A model generated the notes under the pieces. It did no database searches. It was given only the letters and a program-made list of their open reading frames with translations, and was not told the origin of the DNA. Below, piece by piece: positions 45,453 through 53,872 of a stretch of 64,000 nt of DNA. The stretch's first letter is position 1. Each line of letters opens with the position of its first letter. Both the position numbers and the translations under genes were made by a program. The DNA comes from an uncultured Planctomycetota bacterium (lineage in GTDB: Bacteria > Planctomycetota > Planctomycetia > Isosphaerales > Isosphaeraceae): NCBI GenBank assembly GCA_963845755.1, contig CAWJTV010000033.1, positions 320,001 through 384,000 on the forward strand, in the 5' to 3' direction.

Positions 45453-45524
45453 CGAGGACCCGGTGGGGATCGTCATGTGAGAGAGGGTGAAAGTGAGGGT
45501 TCTTCCCGCTGTCGGAGCGTGGCC

Positions 45525-46980
45525 ATGCCCGTTTCCTGGACCATCAAGGCCCGACGTCACCTACGGCAAGGGCTGGCCGAAGCCCTGTGCAGGGAAAGTC
45601 ACAACCTGGGAAACCCCGGGCCTGAGTCGCAGCGATACTTCGGCGTGCTGGAGAGGACCATGGACAATCTCAGCGAGGTTCTCGCGGTCACCTTTCCGGG
45701 AAAGTCGGTCGTCGTGCAGGACCAGGTGATCGGATTCCGGCGCAAAGCAGGCCAGTTCGTCCTGATGGTCGAGGTCTTCGATCCGGGGGATGAATCGTGG
45801 TCGGGTGAGGTCAGTCGGAGCGGCCCGTACGTGGTCAAGATCGGCCCTACGGAGTTCCTGGAGCGGGAGCATCGCGGCTGGGCCTGCTGCCGGCCGCCGG
45901 GCCTGCGGCACGACCTGGTGTTCCTCGACCTCGAAGGCATCCACGAGGACGGGGATCGCGGCCCGCTCATCAGCCTGGTCTATGGCGACGCGCAGCAATT
46001 CCTCGGCGTCGAGACCACGACCACGCTCGAGGCCGCCGCGCTCGAGGCCGTGCGGTTCGGCGTGCCCACGGTCGCCTCGATCGGCTTTGTCATCGTCGCG
46101 CTTTACGAGCGGATCGGACACTTGCTCTACGGCCAGTCCTTCATCGACGACCCGGCGCGGGCGGACTATGCTTTCGACCTCCCCAAGCTGACCGACCGCA
46201 TGGCGCAATGGGATTTCGAACCCGTCGTGCCAGGCCGCCCGCCGCGACGTCAATACGCTGGCTCGGAGCGGCCCCGAGCAGTTCCTCGACCCGATCGACT
46301 ACCTCGACTACGTACGTCAGCTCGTCCCCTGGAAGCTCGCGGACGGTTCGACCCAGGCTCCCACGGCCGACCTGGAGGCGATGCGGCAGCTCGGCGAGCC
46401 CGTGCCGACGCGCGCCGACCTGGTCCCCCGCCTGCTCCGCGGATGTGCCCACGGCGACCTGCACGGGCGCAACGTGCTGGTCGGGATCGTGCGCGAGCAG
46501 GCCCTGTGGCCGACGGTCTTCGACTACGAGGACATGGGCCCGTGCAACCTGATCGGCTGGGACTTCGTCAAGCTCGAGACCGAGCTGAAGATCCGCGCCT
46601 ATCTCGAGGTCTTTGCGGGGGTGGTGCCCAGCGCGTTCGTTCAGAGCGTGCAGAAGTTCGAAGTCGCGCTCGACGCGCGTACGGAGGAGTGTCATGCCAA
46701 CCGAAGCTGGCCGATGGTCGGCGAGGCGGCGACCCCGGCCGATCGGCTCCGCGTCATTCTCTTGGAAGTCCGACGGATGGCCGTGCGCCACCTCGGAGAC
46801 AACGTCGGCCGGCCCAACGACTGGCTGGAACAGTATTACTTCCTGCTGGCGTGTTACGGCATCTGGACGGGCAAGTTCGACAACCTCCAGCTCCGCGAGC
46901 GAATGGGCGCCTTGATCTCGGCCGGAGTCGCCACCGCCCGGCTGAACTGGCCCCGTCTTGAATCACGAATTGCACGTTAG
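45525..46980 (+). CDS. APH/phosphotransferase-like kinase (TCAD9-like), frameshift near 46225
   Basis: YVVKIG...ERE, HGDLHGRNVLV, FDYEDM and WDFVKLETELK. Confidence 0.75.
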
Positions 46981-47086
46981 CCGCCTCTCCTCACCGCAGA
47001 AACTGCTAACTGAAGGAGAAACGGACCGGACCCATTCACCACAGAGTCACAGCGCGGGCGAGCCGCAACCAACCAATCAAAAGAGA

Positions 47087-47349
47087 CTCACCACAGAGTC
47101 ACAGAGGACACAGAGAGGAATTTTTCGATGCCTTCTGTTGATGCAACCTCTTGTGTCTCGAGACGTTATGAAATCATGCACGGTGTACAAGATTCTCGAA
47201 CTTAGTAGTACAGAGCACACAGAGAAGACCATAACGCATTGTAATTTCATGAGTGTACAGAGTCATGTTTCCTCTCATGACGTCTTTTCGAGAATCAGAA
47301 TTCACAACTGTTTCTGTCTTCTCTGTGCTCTCTGTGGCTCTGTGGTGAG
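47087..47349. repeat. CACAGAG-type inverted-repeat element (MITE/REP-like), 263 bp
   Basis: 30-bp arms 47087-47116 and 47320-47349 match 27/30; AT-rich interior; extra partial arm at ~47035-47052. Confidence 0.8.
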
Positions 47350-47386
47350 ATATCCGAACCCGATCTGTTCTCCCAAGGACAATCCC

Positions 47387-48262
47387 GTGAGCGCACCAAT
47401 CTCAACCCCGACACTCGAAGCCACCCTCAAGGTCCCGTTCCCGAGCTATCACCGGCCGCTGGCCTGGGCGCATCAGTGGCTTTCGAGCGGCGATCCCGAG
47501 CGCAAGAGGGTCGCGGTCGAGTTGCTCCGGACGCTGTACCAACGGTATGACCACGCCGTGGCGGTCGGCCAGGAGCTGGTCCTGGCCTTGATGGAGAGCG
47601 GCAGGGAGGCTCAGCCCGAGGCCGAGGCGACCCTCCAGGGGATCGATGCCCGGTTTGCCAAGCTGGACGAGGAGCTCCTCTGCCGGTGGGGCCGGTTCTA
47701 CAAGGACCATGGCGACCGGTACCTCGGGCTGCCCTGGCTGGTCACGGAGATCCCGCCCAACCCCGAGGAAGCGCGGCCGTATTACCTCAGGTCACTCGAG
47801 AAGTACGAGGAAGCGTTTCGCATCCGTTCGGGGCATTACCCGGGGATCAACACGGCCACGCTCCAGTTCTTGCTGGGCACGCTGGCCCGGCCGGCGGGCA
47901 CAGCGTCATCCCCTGAGGGCAACGAAGTCGCCAAGGCACAAGCGATCGCGAGCCGGCTACTCGAAGGGCGCGAGAAGTGGTCGGAGTTGACCCCGAAGGA
48001 TCGCACGATCTGGCACCCCGCGACGGCGGCCGAGGCGCACTTGCTGCTCCAGGAATGGGACCCGGCCGCCCGCGAATACCGCGTTGCGATAGAGAACAGC
48101 CGGGGCGCGCTCCGTGACATCGAAAGCATAGGACGTCAGGTTTGTCTGATCGTCATGGGCTGGAGTCGTGTCGGCGTAGCGATCCCCGAGCCGTTCACCC
48201 AGCTCCATCTCTTATTCCCCAGCGTGCCACGGGAACTCATTATCCTATTAACACAATTTTGA
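47387..48262 (+). CDS. TPR-S / DUF4071-like (MAP3K TRAFs-binding-like) helical repeat protein
   Basis: GTG after AAGGA; ELLCRWGRFYKD, YEEAF...HYPGINTATL and WHPATAAEAHLLL. Confidence 0.75.
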   Translation: MSAPISTPTLEATLKVPFPSYHRPLAWAHQWLSSGDPERKRVAVELLRTLYQRYDHAVAVGQELVLALMESGREAQPEAEATLQGIDARFAKLDEELLCRWGRFYKDHGDRYLGLPWLVTEIPPNPEEARPYYLRSLEKYEEAFRIRSGHYPGINTATLQFLLGTLARPAGTASSPEGNEVAKAQAIASRLLEGREKWSELTPKDRTIWHPATAAEAHLLLQEWDPAAREYRVAIENSRGALRDIESIGRQVCLIVMGWSRVGVAIPEPFTQLHLLFPSVPRELIILLTQF

Positions 48263-48320
48263 CGATGGGGTCCGCAATGTCGCGCACACCAGGGGAACTC
48301 CGCAGCAGGAGGCCGAGAGG

Positions 48321-49044
48321 TCATCCACGTGAGGCGAACCGCCTGAGGTCATCGGCCATCTGACCGAGACGGTCTGCCAGATCACGGGGCGCTTTGAGAC
48401 ATTGCCGAAGAGTCGCAAGGAGTTGTTCGATCTCCTCGAGGGTGACCTTGACCGCATAGGCCCCGGGGGCCGGGCTCGCGTTGAGGAACTCCCATATGGC
48501 CCTCTTCCAACCTTCGTCACCCAGGAGGGTGCACACCAACGCCAGGTCGGCGGCCGCGTATTCATCTTTGGCCCTCGGGCCGCTGCGCTGTCGCCGGACT
48601 TCGTCTCTGGCCGTCTCCAGCTCCTCGCGCAAGGCCAGGTTCGACAACCTTGGCCGCATCGTCGTGGATCGCCTCAGGCTGGATGTAAACGCGCGCGACC
48701 AGCCGTTGCACCATGTTGTAGGAGTTGATGATCCCATAGCCTGATTCCCGCCGCTCGATTTCGTACCCCGCGTCATAGGCACGGGCGGATTTCTCGAATT
48801 CCCCCCACCTGCGAAAAATCCCGCCTTTTGTCCCGAGGATATAGGCCAACTGGGCGGCGATCTCCATCTCCGAACGACCGAGCCTTTCCCCGGGCTCGCG
48901 GGACTGTTCGAGTCGCTCGAGGGCGGTGCGAAGGTGGCCTTCGGCCTGCTCGATCAACGCGACCGCCCGCGGGAAGTCCCCGCGGTCGCGGGCATTCATC
49001 GCGTCCGACTTCAGTTTTCTTGCCAGATCGATGACATCAGACAT
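48321..49044 (-). CDS. TPR-like helical protein (frameshift near 48650)
   Basis: GTKGGIFRRWGEFEKSARAYDAG...SYNMVQRL...YAAADLAL; start overlaps upstream stop by 8 nt. Confidence 0.7.
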
Positions 49045-52000
49045 GATTGAGGCTCCCTCGGGACGCGATGGTATCGAGGACCTTTCCGATTTCGAGGGCG
49101 AGGGCCGCGTACTCGGTCCCGGAATAGTCCTGCAATCGGTCCCGGAGATTCCTGCCGACCTGTTCGAGCGCACCCAGGTGGGGGTCGTTGGGGTCGGATT
49201 CTTGCTTGGTGAGTTTCTCGGTCAATTTGTACCGGCCGTCCAGGTAATACCAGGCCGCCAGCTCATGCTCGATCGCGGCCTTTTTGATGTGCTCGGCGAG
49301 GGACTCGGCGAACAGCACACTCATCTGTCCCGCTTCGGCCACCGCGGGGCCGGCGATCGCCTTGGCCCCGCTCAAGAGGAGCTCCTGGACGGGTCGTCCC
49401 CCCGGCTCTCGGCGCCATTCGATGGAGTCGGCGACCACCTGGTAGGTGCGCCCGGCGAGAGCGTCGCGCCGGTCCCCAGAGACGGCTGATTCGGATCGAA
49501 TTCCGCCAGGCGGTCCTTGAGGTTCTTGAGTTCCTTCAGGCTGAACCGCGTCGGCTTGAAGAAGTCGAAGAGGGCCCGCCTCGCGGGGTCGCCGTCCAGC
49601 TCCACGGCCTTGGCGGGGTCGCCGTCCGGATCGTCCGAGTAGAAGATGAAGATCGGATCGGTGTCATTGACCGCGAGGCGAACCCCGATCTCGAAGAAAA
49701 CGTTGGGGCGCCAGCCGGTCCAGTCGGCGATGCAGACCCTCGTGCAACGGATGGCCGGGTAGAGTCGTTGCTCGACCAGTTGGGGCGACGCGCAATCGAG
49801 CCGTGAGACGAGCCTGGTCGCCTCGCCGAATCGACCTTCGAGCTTGCCCTTCAAGGTTTCGTTGACTTTCTTGCCGTGATCGGGGTCGAACCATTGGAGC
49901 AGCAAGACCTGCTCTTCGGGTTCGCGGATGCCCGGCGTTTCGCCGAGGCGCCTCACCGCATCGAACGCGGGGAGATCGAGGTAGGCATCCGGCTGGAGTC
50001 TGAGGGCATCGTAGCCGGCTTCAAGAGCGTTGGCGATCTGCTTGATCTCCTCTTTTCTGGTGCGAATCGGGATGAGCGAGGCGAGGTTGAAAGGGAGGGG
50101 GTTGCCGCCCGGTTCGTCGTTCGTGAGCGTGATCGTGACGCCCCGCCGGACCGCCGAGCGAATCCCCAGGAACAGCATCACCGCGCAATCGAGCCCCGTG
50201 ATGTCGAACACCGCGAGGTCGCATTCGCAGAGGGCGCGGACGGTCCGCTCGTAGGCCGCCGAAGTCGCGAGCGCCTCGGTGGCCAGGATGACCTCGGGGA
50301 CGGTCTCGATCTCGGGACCCGCGACGGTTCGCGAACCCAATCGCTTCTTGAGCTTCTCGAGCGCCTGCGTGACCCGTTCCTCCTGAGTCATCTCACCGGG
50401 AGGGTCCCCTCTCCCTTTGACGAGGACACACCCGATCCGGCCCGCGAAATCCAACCGAAGCGGAGGGATCTTGCCCAACGCGGCCTCGAAATCCTCGGTG
50501 CTGTACAGACGCTTTCGGGTCCAGTCCTCATCCTGCCGGTCCGGCCGCCACTCCGCACGGAGCGGCTCGCACGCGGCCCAGATGTCGGGGAATCCCTGCG
50601 CGAGGGCCGGCTTCGGTCCGTGTCGGATGATGGCTTGATCCACCTTCATGGGCTTGCCGGTCCGGCCCTCGAAGCGGGTGTGACCGACGATTGATGCGAC
50701 AGCGTCGATGACCTTGCCCTTCTCGCTTGCCGTCAGCTTCGGACGAGGCCATAGGCTCGCCAGTTGCGTCCTGAGGCCTTCGATCAGCCCGACTCTTTCC
50801 GTCAGCCTCGTCTCGTCGGTATCCGCGGCTATCTTGCCTTCGCGGTCGAAGATGCGGAAGTGGAGCAACTGATTCACGGCGGCTACGACGATCAGATTCT
50901 TACCCTCGCTCGGGATGTCTCGTGCGTCATTCACCGAGGACATCAATCGTAGGTCGTACCCCTCGAAGCGGATGACATACCCCTTGAGCGTCTTCACCGG
51001 CTCCTCGATCCGACCGGGCTTGTCCACGAGGAGGAACCTCTTCTTGTTGTAGAGGTACGCGGTGATCAGTCTGTTGAGGACGGAAGCCTGCGGGCTGAAT
51101 AACGCCTCCTCGGAACTGTTCAGCCAGATCGTCCCCATCTTGCGCGGGCGTAGGTTCGCGTCCAGCGCCGGGCGCGATCTCGCTCGCCGCCGCCTTGTAC
51201 GCATCGGCGCGGGCCTGCGGCGAGCCACCCTTCTCCTCGACCTCCTTGAGCCGATCAGCGACTTTGCTGAGGGAATGTTTACTCACCTTATTGATCACAT
51301 CGCCATGTTTAAAATCCATAATGCAGAGCCGCATGAGATCGGTGAGCCCACCGTCGCCGCTCCCGGACAGGAACCAGGACCCGATGGACTCGGCCTCGAG
51401 TCCGTCGAGGCGCGTGTCGGTCCAGTAGCCGTCGGACGCCTCCGTGTCGTCCCTGCCGAAGCCGACCGCCAGGATGACGACGTCGAACTCCCGTCGGTCT
51501 TCCCCGCCAACCTGGACGAAGGGCCTCTTACCGGCGACACCGACTTTGATCTCTTTGCAATCACATCGAGGATGGGGCAACCTCTGACCCAGGCGGGATC
51601 GAAGCCGATCCCACTCTTTGTCGAGTTGCTCGACGACTTCCACCGCGTTTTTCGCACTCCAGGGCAATATCGGCACGTCGGCCTGATCGCCCAGCTCGGT
51701 GCTGTAGGGCCAGTCGTAGATATATGGGTGGATATATCGCTTATCGCACCCCCTCTGGAGCCGCATGGTATCCCCGAGCTCCTCGAACACCTGGCATTCT
51801 CGAACGCCCCGCACGGCCGCGGCGGCGGCGGCCGTCATCCCGGCAATCCCGCCCCCGATCACGGCAACCCGGCTCTGGCCGGACAGGATGCCGCCCTTCG
51901 CCAGGGAGTTGACCAGGTTCAGTGCGCGGACCTGCTGGAAGTAGACGGTCACATACCTCGCGAAACAACCCAGGACGTAGATCCCCGGTTTACCGGGTAC

Positions 52001-52066
52001 TCGCATCAGTCGGAGCAGCTCGGTCCGGTGCTCGTCATCGGTCTGAGGTTCCTTGGGGAATGACAT
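49037..52066 (-). CDS. FAD-dependent oxidoreductase fused to two nucleoside-deoxyribosyltransferase/DRHyd-like domains (~1000 aa; two frameshifts)
   Basis: GGAGGGA RBS; VAVIGGGIAG, FDVVILAVGFG, SGSGDGGL; CDLAVFDITGLDCAVMLFLGIR and VCIADWTGWRPNVFFEIGVR. Confidence 0.75.
50676..50961. mobile_element. MITE-like element inserted in frame in a CDS
   Basis: TIRs GGGTGTGACCGACGATTGATG / GGGTACGACCTACGATTGATG (18/21); flanking duplication CTCGAAGC (50668-50675, 50962-50969); 286+8=294 bp. Confidence 0.85.
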
Positions 52067-52435
52067 CCCTCCCTCCACTTCGACATCGAACCTGGAGAAA
52101 CCGGTCGGCCGAGTCGGTCGCGACCCCGGCTCGGTCGAGGGTTCCCAGGTGGGAAAAGACCGAACGCGGGACTGAGACAGGCTGGAAGGAACGGGACAGG
52201 ATGGGTTGTTCGACGGCATGTCCCCGACGCCTCTGCGTTTTCATCCCGGTTCACGCCATGCCTGAAGGATCAGTCTACAAGGTCGATCAGGCCAAGTCCA
52301 TCGCGCGGGGGCCGCATCCCGAGAAATCCGCAAGTGCATTCGAATCGCGATGGGGAAGGTGTACGATGAGCACGTGGCCGCCCCATGCCGAGGGGTGACT
52401 TCGATGCCCGTATCGCGTCGATAACCGGAGGTCCC

Positions 52436-53530
52436 ATGAGTCCCGAAGTCGAGATGACTCAGCCGGGTCGGAGCCGACCTGCCGCACCGATTCCGCTGGT
52501 AGATCGACCCATGGTCGAAGACACGGACATGGTTGAGACGCCCGACGAAATGGCGAATTGGCCGGCGTTGGTCGATCGTCTTCGGCGCTGCAGCGAACTG
52601 ATCAGCCCGGTCTTCCACGATCGCGATGCCGAGGCCAAGGATCACCAGAGATACCATCGACTCCTCACCACCCTGGCTGCCGTCTTCGGTACAGGCGCCG
52701 TCCTGTTCGCGATCCTGCAACTGGCGTATCCGGATCTGCTCGGTGGCACGACCCTGGAGGTCGTCGAGGTCGTGGCCGTGGTCGCGGCGCTCGCCGCGGT
52801 GGTGATGGGCGTGATCTCGGGCCGGCAAAGTCGGTGGCTACTCGAGCGGCATAAGGCCGAGCGGCTCCGGCTGGCCAAGTTCCGGTTCCTGATCGACCCG
52901 GCAACCTGGAGTGACCGCCCGGAGGACGTCGAGCATCGGGTCGCGGCCCTCCGCGCCGAGGTTGACCGCATTCAATCAATTACGTCACGCCAGTTCCGAG
53001 AGTGGACCGAGCAGGAAGATGTGCATCTGGAACCGCATCAGCGGCAAGACCAGCCCACCGGGGAAACGCGCGACCAACTGGTCGACTACTATCGGACCAA
53101 ACGCCTGTTGTTCCAACGCGATATCTTCCGCAGCCGGGCCAAGCGGCACGATCGATGGGATCGTGACAGCCGTCGCCTCGGGCCAATCCTGTTCCTCGGC
53201 AGTGTGTCCGCAGTCCTGGTCCACTTCGGGATCGACCTGTATAACCGGCGGAAGGGGTACAATGTGGACACCACGCCATTAATCCTGCTGGCCGCGGGCT
53301 TGCCCGTGGCCGGTGCCGGCATCCGCACCCTGCGCACGGCGTACGAGTTTGCTCGAAACACCAGTCGCTATCGCGCAAAGTCCGTCGCGCTGGATCGACT
53401 TGACCACATTCTTAAGGAAGAGCAGGATCCTCAGTCAGAGATTCGTTTGTTGGGGTACTCGGAAGAGCTTCTGGAATTCGAGCATCATGAATGGTGCCGG
53501 CTCATGATCGAGGCGGAGTGGCTTCCGTGA
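52436..53530 (+). CDS. Double SLATT (DUF4231-like) membrane protein
   Basis: GGAGG RBS; two 2-TM hairpins, followed by WLLERHKAERLR and by SRY...L...EELLEFEHHEW respectively. Confidence 0.8.
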   Translation: MSPEVEMTQPGRSRPAAPIPLVDRPMVEDTDMVETPDEMANWPALVDRLRRCSELISPVFHDRDAEAKDHQRYHRLLTTLAAVFGTGAVLFAILQLAYPDLLGGTTLEVVEVVAVVAALAAVVMGVISGRQSRWLLERHKAERLRLAKFRFLIDPATWSDRPEDVEHRVAALRAEVDRIQSITSRQFREWTEQEDVHLEPHQRQDQPTGETRDQLVDYYRTKRLLFQRDIFRSRAKRHDRWDRDSRRLGPILFLGSVSAVLVHFGIDLYNRRKGYNVDTTPLILLAAGLPVAGAGIRTLRTAYEFARNTSRYRAKSVALDRLDHILKEEQDPQSEIRLLGYSEELLEFEHHEWCRLMIEAEWLP

Positions 53531-53584
53531 GACGCACGGGGTATCGAGTTTGAGCGATTTCGCTCAACCAGAAAGCGGTGGACC

Positions 53585-53872
53585 TTGACATACAGACCTC
53601 GTCCGATCGATACGATGCAAGTCGAACTGACGCCCGAGCTCCTCCAACTCGTGGAACGATTGGCTGAGAACGTCCATGACGTCTGGGCAGCCAACCGGCT
53701 GGCGGCAGGCTGGAGACTCGGCCCCAGCCGGGATGGCGACCTCAAGCAGACCCCCTTGCTCGTGCCGTACGCGGAACTGCCCGAGTCGGAGAAGCACTAC
53801 GATCGCGACCTGGCACTGGCGACCCTCAAGGCGATCCTGGCGCTGGGATATCAGATCGAGCCAATAAAATGA
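53585..53872 (+). CDS. Stand-alone RyR domain protein
   Basis: YRPRPIDT..VEL...LAENVHDVWA..RL..GW..GP.RD..LK.TPLLVPYAELPESEK.YDR. Confidence 0.93.
   Translation: MTYRPRPIDTMQVELTPELLQLVERLAENVHDVWAANRLAAGWRLGPSRDGDLKQTPLLVPYAELPESEKHYDRDLALATLKAILALGYQIEPIK

Follow-up and report, generated by a model that had tools for sequence, protein, structure and literature searches.

The window, a stretch of 64,000 nucleotides from an uncultured bacterium of the Isosphaeraceae, contains a 286-bp element that is inserted in frame into a protein-coding gene. It is probably a MITE of an insertion sequence (IS) of the ISKra4 family (Mutator-like, p-MULT 4), moved in trans by the transposase of that IS and surviving mainly as a tolerated in-frame domain, the host-maintained fold preserving the transposon ends. 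The element, found in soil planctomycete bacteria, would be a transposon that spreads as a protein module. In bacteria, which are without introns and exon shuffling, the origin of internal domain insertions is hard to observe. In the precedent known from Rickettsia the mover is unnamed and the effect on the protein mostly unproven, whereas here the mover and its footprint can be read, along with the empty sites and the selection acting on the insert. The arrangement would offer selfish DNA a route of survival in gene-dense genomes, that of a foldable passenger whose transposon ends are guarded by selection on the host. The copies further provide a natural map of insertion-tolerant sites in more than 1,000 proteins, and the domain, for which neither family nor fold is known, will confuse clustering and annotation, since it links proteins that are unrelated.

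The insertion at the window locus

The repeats described in the earlier note on this DNA were confirmed: the 12-mer CCCTCGAAGCGG occurs at 50666-50677 and 50960-50971, the two copies lying 294 bp apart, the peptide RFEG appears twice, and the terminal arms (Table 1) are complementary at 18 of 21 positions. On the minus strand an open frame runs RFE-GYDLRLM...SIVGHT-RFE, with 95 residues between the two RFE. The note had allowed two dissections of the repeat, and the one that stands is 286 bp plus an 8-bp duplication, which agrees with the IS ends and with the flanks of 33 copies; the other, 282 bp plus 12 bp, is ruled out by the GGG/CCC ends, which coincide with the ends of the autonomous IS, and by a flank match restricted to offset 8. 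Element and duplication together amount to 294 bp, or 98 codons, and since the last base of the element and the 8-bp copy form three codons, the insertion adds 98 residues. The element and one of its junctions are matched with no difference by contigs assembled from one public run, which could be that of the source sample itself, so that the match is not independent; none of these contigs extends over the host frameshift or shows a joint across the element. As judged from sequence, the element passes on all MITE features examined (terminal inverted repeats, an 8-bp duplication, short length without a transposase, dispersed copies with empty sites, and a matching autonomous IS), and we infer that it is moved in trans.

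Table 1. Positions of the element, its host gene and its non-coding siblings
Feature	Position	Strand	Remark
Non-autonomous element (probable coding MITE), 286 bp	50676..50961	-	Ends match the IS inverted repeat; 54/68 full DNA copies are 286 bp
Inserted domain GYDLRLM...SIVGHT, 95 codons	50677..50961	-	Predicted four strands and two helices
Inverted repeat, coding-strand 5' end; encodes first strand GYDLRLM	50941..50961	-	18/21 to IS
Inverted repeat, coding-strand 3' end; encodes end of last helix, SIVGHT	50676..50696	+	21/21 identical to IS
Target duplication CTCGAAGC, 8 bp; with the element's last base gives the second RFE	50668..50675	.	
Target duplication CTCGAAGC, other 8-bp copy	50962..50969	.	
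Second part of host gene: end of FAD-dependent oxidoreductase, insert, C-terminal domains with weak nucleoside deoxyribosyltransferase-like match	49372..51228	-	Open frame
First part of host gene, FAD-dependent oxidoreductase, other frame	51182..52066	-	58% identical to P0188; PADLOC LmuA model match
Probable one-base frameshift between host parts, upstream of insert	51165..51185	-	Homologues continuous across
Sibling non-coding MITEs, two further families (240-247 bp; 148 bp)	L134:1501-1741, L137:1275-1521, L145:1501-1740, L147:377-524		Same inverted repeats

The open reading frame that carries the insert is only the second part of the host gene, the first part lying in another frame (50927-52219), and the probable frameshift between them is either an assembly error or the mark of a pseudogene. 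The oxidoreductase part matches the PADLOC LmuA model at an E value of 6e-74. The genes surrounding the host (window positions 45477-53872) are of the conflict type, with domain matches to TCAD9, TPR-S, SLATT and RyR. Homologues without the insert and with a single RFxG, which the earlier note had foreseen, do exist: P0188, the closest homologue of the window host, reads RFKG-GRREP and has no insert, the domain occurs in 0 of 89 homologues, and in the homologue alignment the insertion falls in a turn between two strands where gaps are frequent. A diverged copy, inserted independently and at another site, is present in a second FAD oxidoreductase of the same family (L060, G073:C3:913-1968).

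Copies, footprint and the partner insertion sequence

The segment recurs in unrelated proteins with different duplications, as had been proposed from the window alone. A profile of the domain matches 1,819 protein clusters (50% identity) at E <= 0.001 and 1,300 at 1e-10; no donor gene for the interior was seen among the best 150 of the 1,819. When the domain is masked, 187 domain-bearing proteins fall into 145 unrelated host groups, and the domain is internal in 232 of 265 long matches. The hosts include patatin, JAB, cyclophilin, sigma factors, acyl-CoA synthetase, NuoEF, exosortase, AcrB and HlyD, together with histidine and Ser/Thr kinases, subtilase, NB-ARC, WD40 and TPR proteins; 30 of 70 scanned host proteins have no Pfam match. 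Copies are 280-319 bp long, and the open frame of the element gives no transposase match. In the window genome (G000), protein and DNA profiles agree on seven loci, and we read the hosts besides the window as a probable kinase-WD40 protein, an MMPL-like transporter, and WD40, repeat and membrane proteins, plus one frameshifted copy.

The domain is present in 62 of 121 Isosphaeraceae genomes, with 1-15 matches each, and absent from 400 genomes drawn from the rest of the phylum (0/400); named copy-bearing records belong to Isosphaeraceae, Isosphaerales or Planctomycetota. Searches of plasmids and of viral contigs gave no element match. Three copies (L050, L052 and L053) lie in a Solibacteraceae and a deltaproteobacterial assembly, where either transfer or misbinning may have placed them. 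L050 and L052, 5 kb apart, are in genes that we take, from their motifs, to resemble Tc toxin complex subunits; L052 and L053 have no Pfam match. Within L050 (1801-2089) the element seems to leave and regain the frame internally, with the host frame kept.

The footprint of insertion is preserved in many copies. Among the 33 copies whose ends are well preserved, a flank match is seen at offset 8 alone, with 68% identity as compared with 23-30% at offsets 5-7 and 9-12. At least six of the eight duplicated bases are kept in 31 of 68 DNA copies versus 0.95% of shuffled flank pairs, by which chance is excluded. The quality of the duplication tracks that of the ends (rho 0.48), and in 25 of the 68 copies it is reduced to 0-3 of 8 bases. 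At the protein level, the residue after the element is P, L, H, Q or R, whose codons start with the terminal C, in 138 of 170 copies against a background of 30%, and 80 of 170 copies have an exact two-residue duplication (shuffled mean 1.2, maximum 7).

Opposite the copies of relatives, the window genome has empty sites with a single 8-mer at the DNA level, such as GGTTCGAC, and an uninterrupted homologue is found there for 39 of 97 copies from other genomes. Two empty orthologues share 93-96% protein identity within the genus, and nine insertions are common to genome pairs (disjoint pairs). In acyl-CoA synthetase P0018 the His motif is kept and the insert, absent from 19 of 19 homologues, lies between a helix and a strand; in cyclophilin P0016 it falls between the residues that align with positions 104 and 103 of a homologue of solved structure.

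A Mutator-like IS with 8-9-bp duplications, to which the earlier note had pointed, was recovered in the form of an ISKra4-family IS with matching ends and 8-bp duplications. BLASTN with the element located this 1,421-bp IS at three loci of the window genome (C11:365214, C11:558125 and C27:240631; L115-L117), in near-identical, intact-looking copies with perfect 24-bp repeats, duplications of 8/8, 7/8 and 8/8, and one ORF of 427 residues. The transposase narrowly passes the ISKra4 model NF033572 (205.8 bits; cut-off 205) and has no Pfam match. According to the accessible text of the family description, ISKra4 corresponds to p-MULT 4, has been reported from Planctomycetes, and is marked by repeats of 18-39 bp with a terminal C and by duplications of 8-9 bp (PMC3942029). 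Two decayed relatives of the IS are present at C11:879430 and C13:271836.

Element and IS have only ~22 terminal bases of sequence in common, and apart from the ends the interior (244 internal bases) resembles neither the IS nor the sibling MITEs. Related transposases occur in 25 of 121 family genomes, and the element is not enriched alongside them (14 of 25 transposase genomes versus 62 of 121 overall). The sibling elements, four in number (three of 240-247 bp and one of 148 bp), all contain stops in all six frames (4/4), so that, among the ordinary MITEs belonging to this IS, the coding form makes up one lineage. In 102 of 102 copies, T stands at position 11 of the left repeat and yields the core residue Leu4 instead of the Arg that the IS base would specify; G at the corresponding position of the right repeat is retained in 93 of 102 copies. 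T at position 11 of the left repeat was also seen in one unrelated element.

One of the six frames is open, and the other five are open in 0, 2, 1, 10 and 7 of 68 copies. A frame-blind search with the DNA pattern of the left end yielded 26 loci, 25 of them the element and one unrelated. Among these 25 copies, in which two pairs probably represent the same insertion twice, 22 have at least 70 open codons upstream in the element's frame, versus 20 of 125 other frames. A published census, in its accessible part, places 90.4% of bacterial MITEs in intergenic positions (PMC11602168). Since 17 of 55 short proteins start at the internal Met of the element, the genome sample may underestimate how common non-genic or broken copies are; several copies are frameshifted in long-contig assemblies, and the frameshifted or Met-starting copies may be non-genic, pseudogenes or errors.

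No pair among the 68 copies has a pS between 0 and 0.1, so no two separate insertions are nearly identical, and any present activity is putative. The window copy is only 68-76% identical to the other copies of its genome, and its source copy was accordingly not found there. The ten copies with perfect duplications, two of which belong to a distinct and distant subfamily, have a mutual pS of 0.45 and an omega of 0.51 when compared as pairs of extant copies, a divergence that fits repeated remobilisation from diverged coding copies. The copies are also clustered: 18 of 110 (14 genomes) lie within 10 kb of another versus 1.3 expected, a 14-fold excess, with split matches merged, one duplicated region dropped and independence checked for three pairs. 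Within proteins, 22 of 25 pairs are separate insertions, and ten proteins contain nested copies. Random insertion does not explain the clustering, for which local hopping, dispensable islands or targeting could each be the source.

Predicted fold of the domain and purifying selection

The earlier note had read the host-strand frame as stop-free and the peptide as a globular alpha/beta domain. The frame is open, and the AlphaFold model is confident (pLDDT 91) and predicts an alpha/beta arrangement with strands at residues 3-10, 23-29, 32-38 and 44-49 and helices at 54-70 and 78-92. Across 170 copies, core columns are 97-100% hydrophobic and surface columns variable; near-invariant residues outside the core are R36 (99%), H34 and D47-T48-D49-E50. 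In the model of host plus insert, the insert, supplied without an alignment, is predicted at pLDDT 28-55 and the host flanks at 87-91. The domain has no family match in Pfam, NCBIfam or PADLOC, its best match among PDB sequences is partial (E 0.006), Foldseek against PDB and viral structures returned nothing at E <= 0.001, and ESM Atlas gave no usable match; none of this proves a new fold. The YTH domain, the best VIA-align candidate for a fold relative (Z 5.7, rmsd 3.6, 83 aligned), was rejected as lying within the background.

With repeat-encoded codons excluded, a set of 67 copies gives an omega of 0.30 and a set of 84 copies one of 0.32-0.40, 18 having been dropped from the latter set as members of shared insertions, and an omega of 1 is rejected in both sets (2dlnL 592 and 686). 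The copies tested are full-length protein-profile matches, a choice that favours conserved copies, and pairwise omega is weaker (median 0.44-0.66); the dN/dS ratio, which the earlier note had named as a check, is below 1 (0.3-0.5). In the nine shared insertions the synonymous divergence is 0.342 in the element and 0.341 in the flanks, and at this equal divergence omega is 0.36 in the element and 0.26 in the flanks, from which it follows that selection continues after insertion. In one shared pair omega is near 1 in element and flank alike. Purifying selection on the domain, both before and after insertion, is thus shown at the sequence level.

Explanations and known systems

In the mechanism that we propose, the DDE transposase of the co-resident IS would bind the ends in trans and insert copies at many sites, passing through a circular intermediate if the analogy with the ISKra4 family holds. 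About one in six genic insertions would fall in the open frame, and the other five would carry stops and be purged. The in-frame copies would be tolerated at loops, linkers and termini, the insert being a passenger that folds on its own, and selection on the host protein would keep the domain. As the first strand and the last helix are encoded by the inverted repeats, the same selection would also keep the ends usable, so that old, diverged in-frame copies could be copied out once more, whereas non-coding copies would decay or be lost by deletion. The domain would need no biochemical function and would act as a survival device of selfish DNA, comparable to an intein that is never removed. Of the earlier claim that a non-autonomous transposon grafts a folded domain into unrelated proteins, the grafting into unrelated proteins is supported, while "folded" and "mobilised in trans" are predictions.

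The copies could instead be fossils of one or a few old bursts, inherited vertically or on islands, with the IS match reflecting ancestry and not partnership. We regard this as unlikely, but less so than the other alternatives; it departs from the preferred explanation in timing alone, and the two are compatible in part. The fossil reading would account for the missing near-identical insertions, the lack of co-occurrence with the transposase and the insertions common to several genomes. Perfect 8/8 duplications with near-perfect ends in two distant subfamilies speak against it, as do the window-copy end, which is identical over 21/21 positions to an intact-looking IS in the same genome, and the empty orthologues at 93-96% identity within the genus. 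It is rather improbable that the same element carries a domain with its own function, one that binds a partner, itself, the transposase or nucleic acid and either benefits some hosts or steers insertions to copy-bearing genes. The constraint close to that of the host flanks and the near-invariant residues outside the core are what such a function would lead one to expect, and so are the separate insertions within proteins, the nested cases and the excess of neighbours; however, the hosts have no function or compartment in common, presence is patchy and orthologues are empty, conservation can result from common descent, and clustering can come from local hopping or dispensable genes.

Removal of the insert after expression, by intein-like protein splicing, RNA splicing or ribosome bypass through repeat pairing, is very improbable. 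The repeats can pair in RNA, thereby closing the element, and many unrelated proteins tolerate the insert, but intein end residues are missing (Gly at the start, His-Thr at the end, then P/R/H/L/Q), RNA folding is no better than that of shuffles (z -1.5), and removal at the RNA level would require neither the hydrophobic-core constraint nor the strict retention of frame. An ordinary promiscuous domain, spread by recombination and resembling the IS ends by chance, would be compatible with old copies in which the duplication is no longer recognisable, yet it is refuted by the match to the IS end, the terminal-C codon rule, the duplication at offset 8 and the empty sites, and is also at odds with insertions inside domains and inside the element itself and with the limitation to one family. 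Beyond the preferred coding-MITE explanation, we put forward a bolder proposal tentatively, with rather more doubt than belief: that the transposon is still active, that its whole body including the inverted repeats is an insertion-compatible domain of a new fold which can persist and spread essentially only within host proteins, and that the domain may bind something that draws copies to copy-bearing genes. If true, the element would amount to a domain-insertion system occurring in nature and driven by a transposase, through which thousands of proteins of one bacterial family have been remodelled.

Inteins and IStrons are selfish inserts that persist in genes by sparing the host product and remove themselves by splicing. 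Inteins have an N-terminal Cys or Ser, a C-terminal His-Asn and Cys, Ser or Thr as the next residue. In contrast, the element has no splicing motifs, with Gly at the start and Thr at the end in 99% of copies each, and appears to stay in the protein; no Hint structure was among the structural matches listed for the predicted alpha/beta model. The Pack-MULEs of plants carry varied captured gene pieces between Mutator-type ends and are moved in trans, whereas one fixed domain, for which the best 150 of the 1,819 matches contain no donor gene, runs through the repeats themselves here. The element differs from the ISKra4-family IS in having no transposase. A circular intermediate is a feature of that family, and some of its members insert upstream of sigma-A promoters.

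As far as the accessible text of the sources describes them, the Rickettsia palindromic elements (Ogata 2000, 2002, as reviewed) are stem-loops of 105-146 bp, about half of them intragenic in three of ten families, for which the duplication is given as "?" in a review table, no transposase is named, and one host enzyme was shown to stay active (PMC10969869, PMC2229807). Like these, the element is a short in-frame repeat in unrelated genes that adds a conserved peptide. On the same descriptions it differs from them in its 286-bp length, the lack of a long palindrome (folding z -1.5), its Planctomycetota hosts, the 8-bp duplication, the autonomous IS, a predicted globular domain of 95 residues, the measured selection and more than 1,800 host clusters. 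Bacterial MITEs with ORFs (ERIC/RU-1, YPAL, 107-bp Correia, Coxiella QMITE1/2), to the extent described in PMC2229807 and PMC5896051, likewise are non-autonomous and have inverted repeats, target duplications and in-frame fusions; they are mainly intergenic, with fusions occasional and often terminal, whereas in-frame internal insertion is the rule among the copies found here. In the accessible literature we found no coding MITE of the ISKra4 family and no description of this element, subscription journals, ISfinder and supplements being outside the scope of the search. We take the element to be real, and to be a coding MITE whose autonomous partner is identified and whose domain-sized insert is under selection.

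Several copies have unusual arrangements. L069 (G062:C94:12460-13994) comprises two inverted copies of one element-bearing gene region, 1.2 kb apart, one of them with a one-base insertion, and is either a real duplication or an assembly artefact. In P0051 a host unit containing the element is repeated three times in tandem with a spacing of 143 residues, and L119 (G000:C13:137134-137493) has an internal partial hairpin duplication, the copy being still in frame. L183 and L126 hit the same membrane-protein gene in two genomes, a few codons apart and with different duplications, which suggests a permissive loop.
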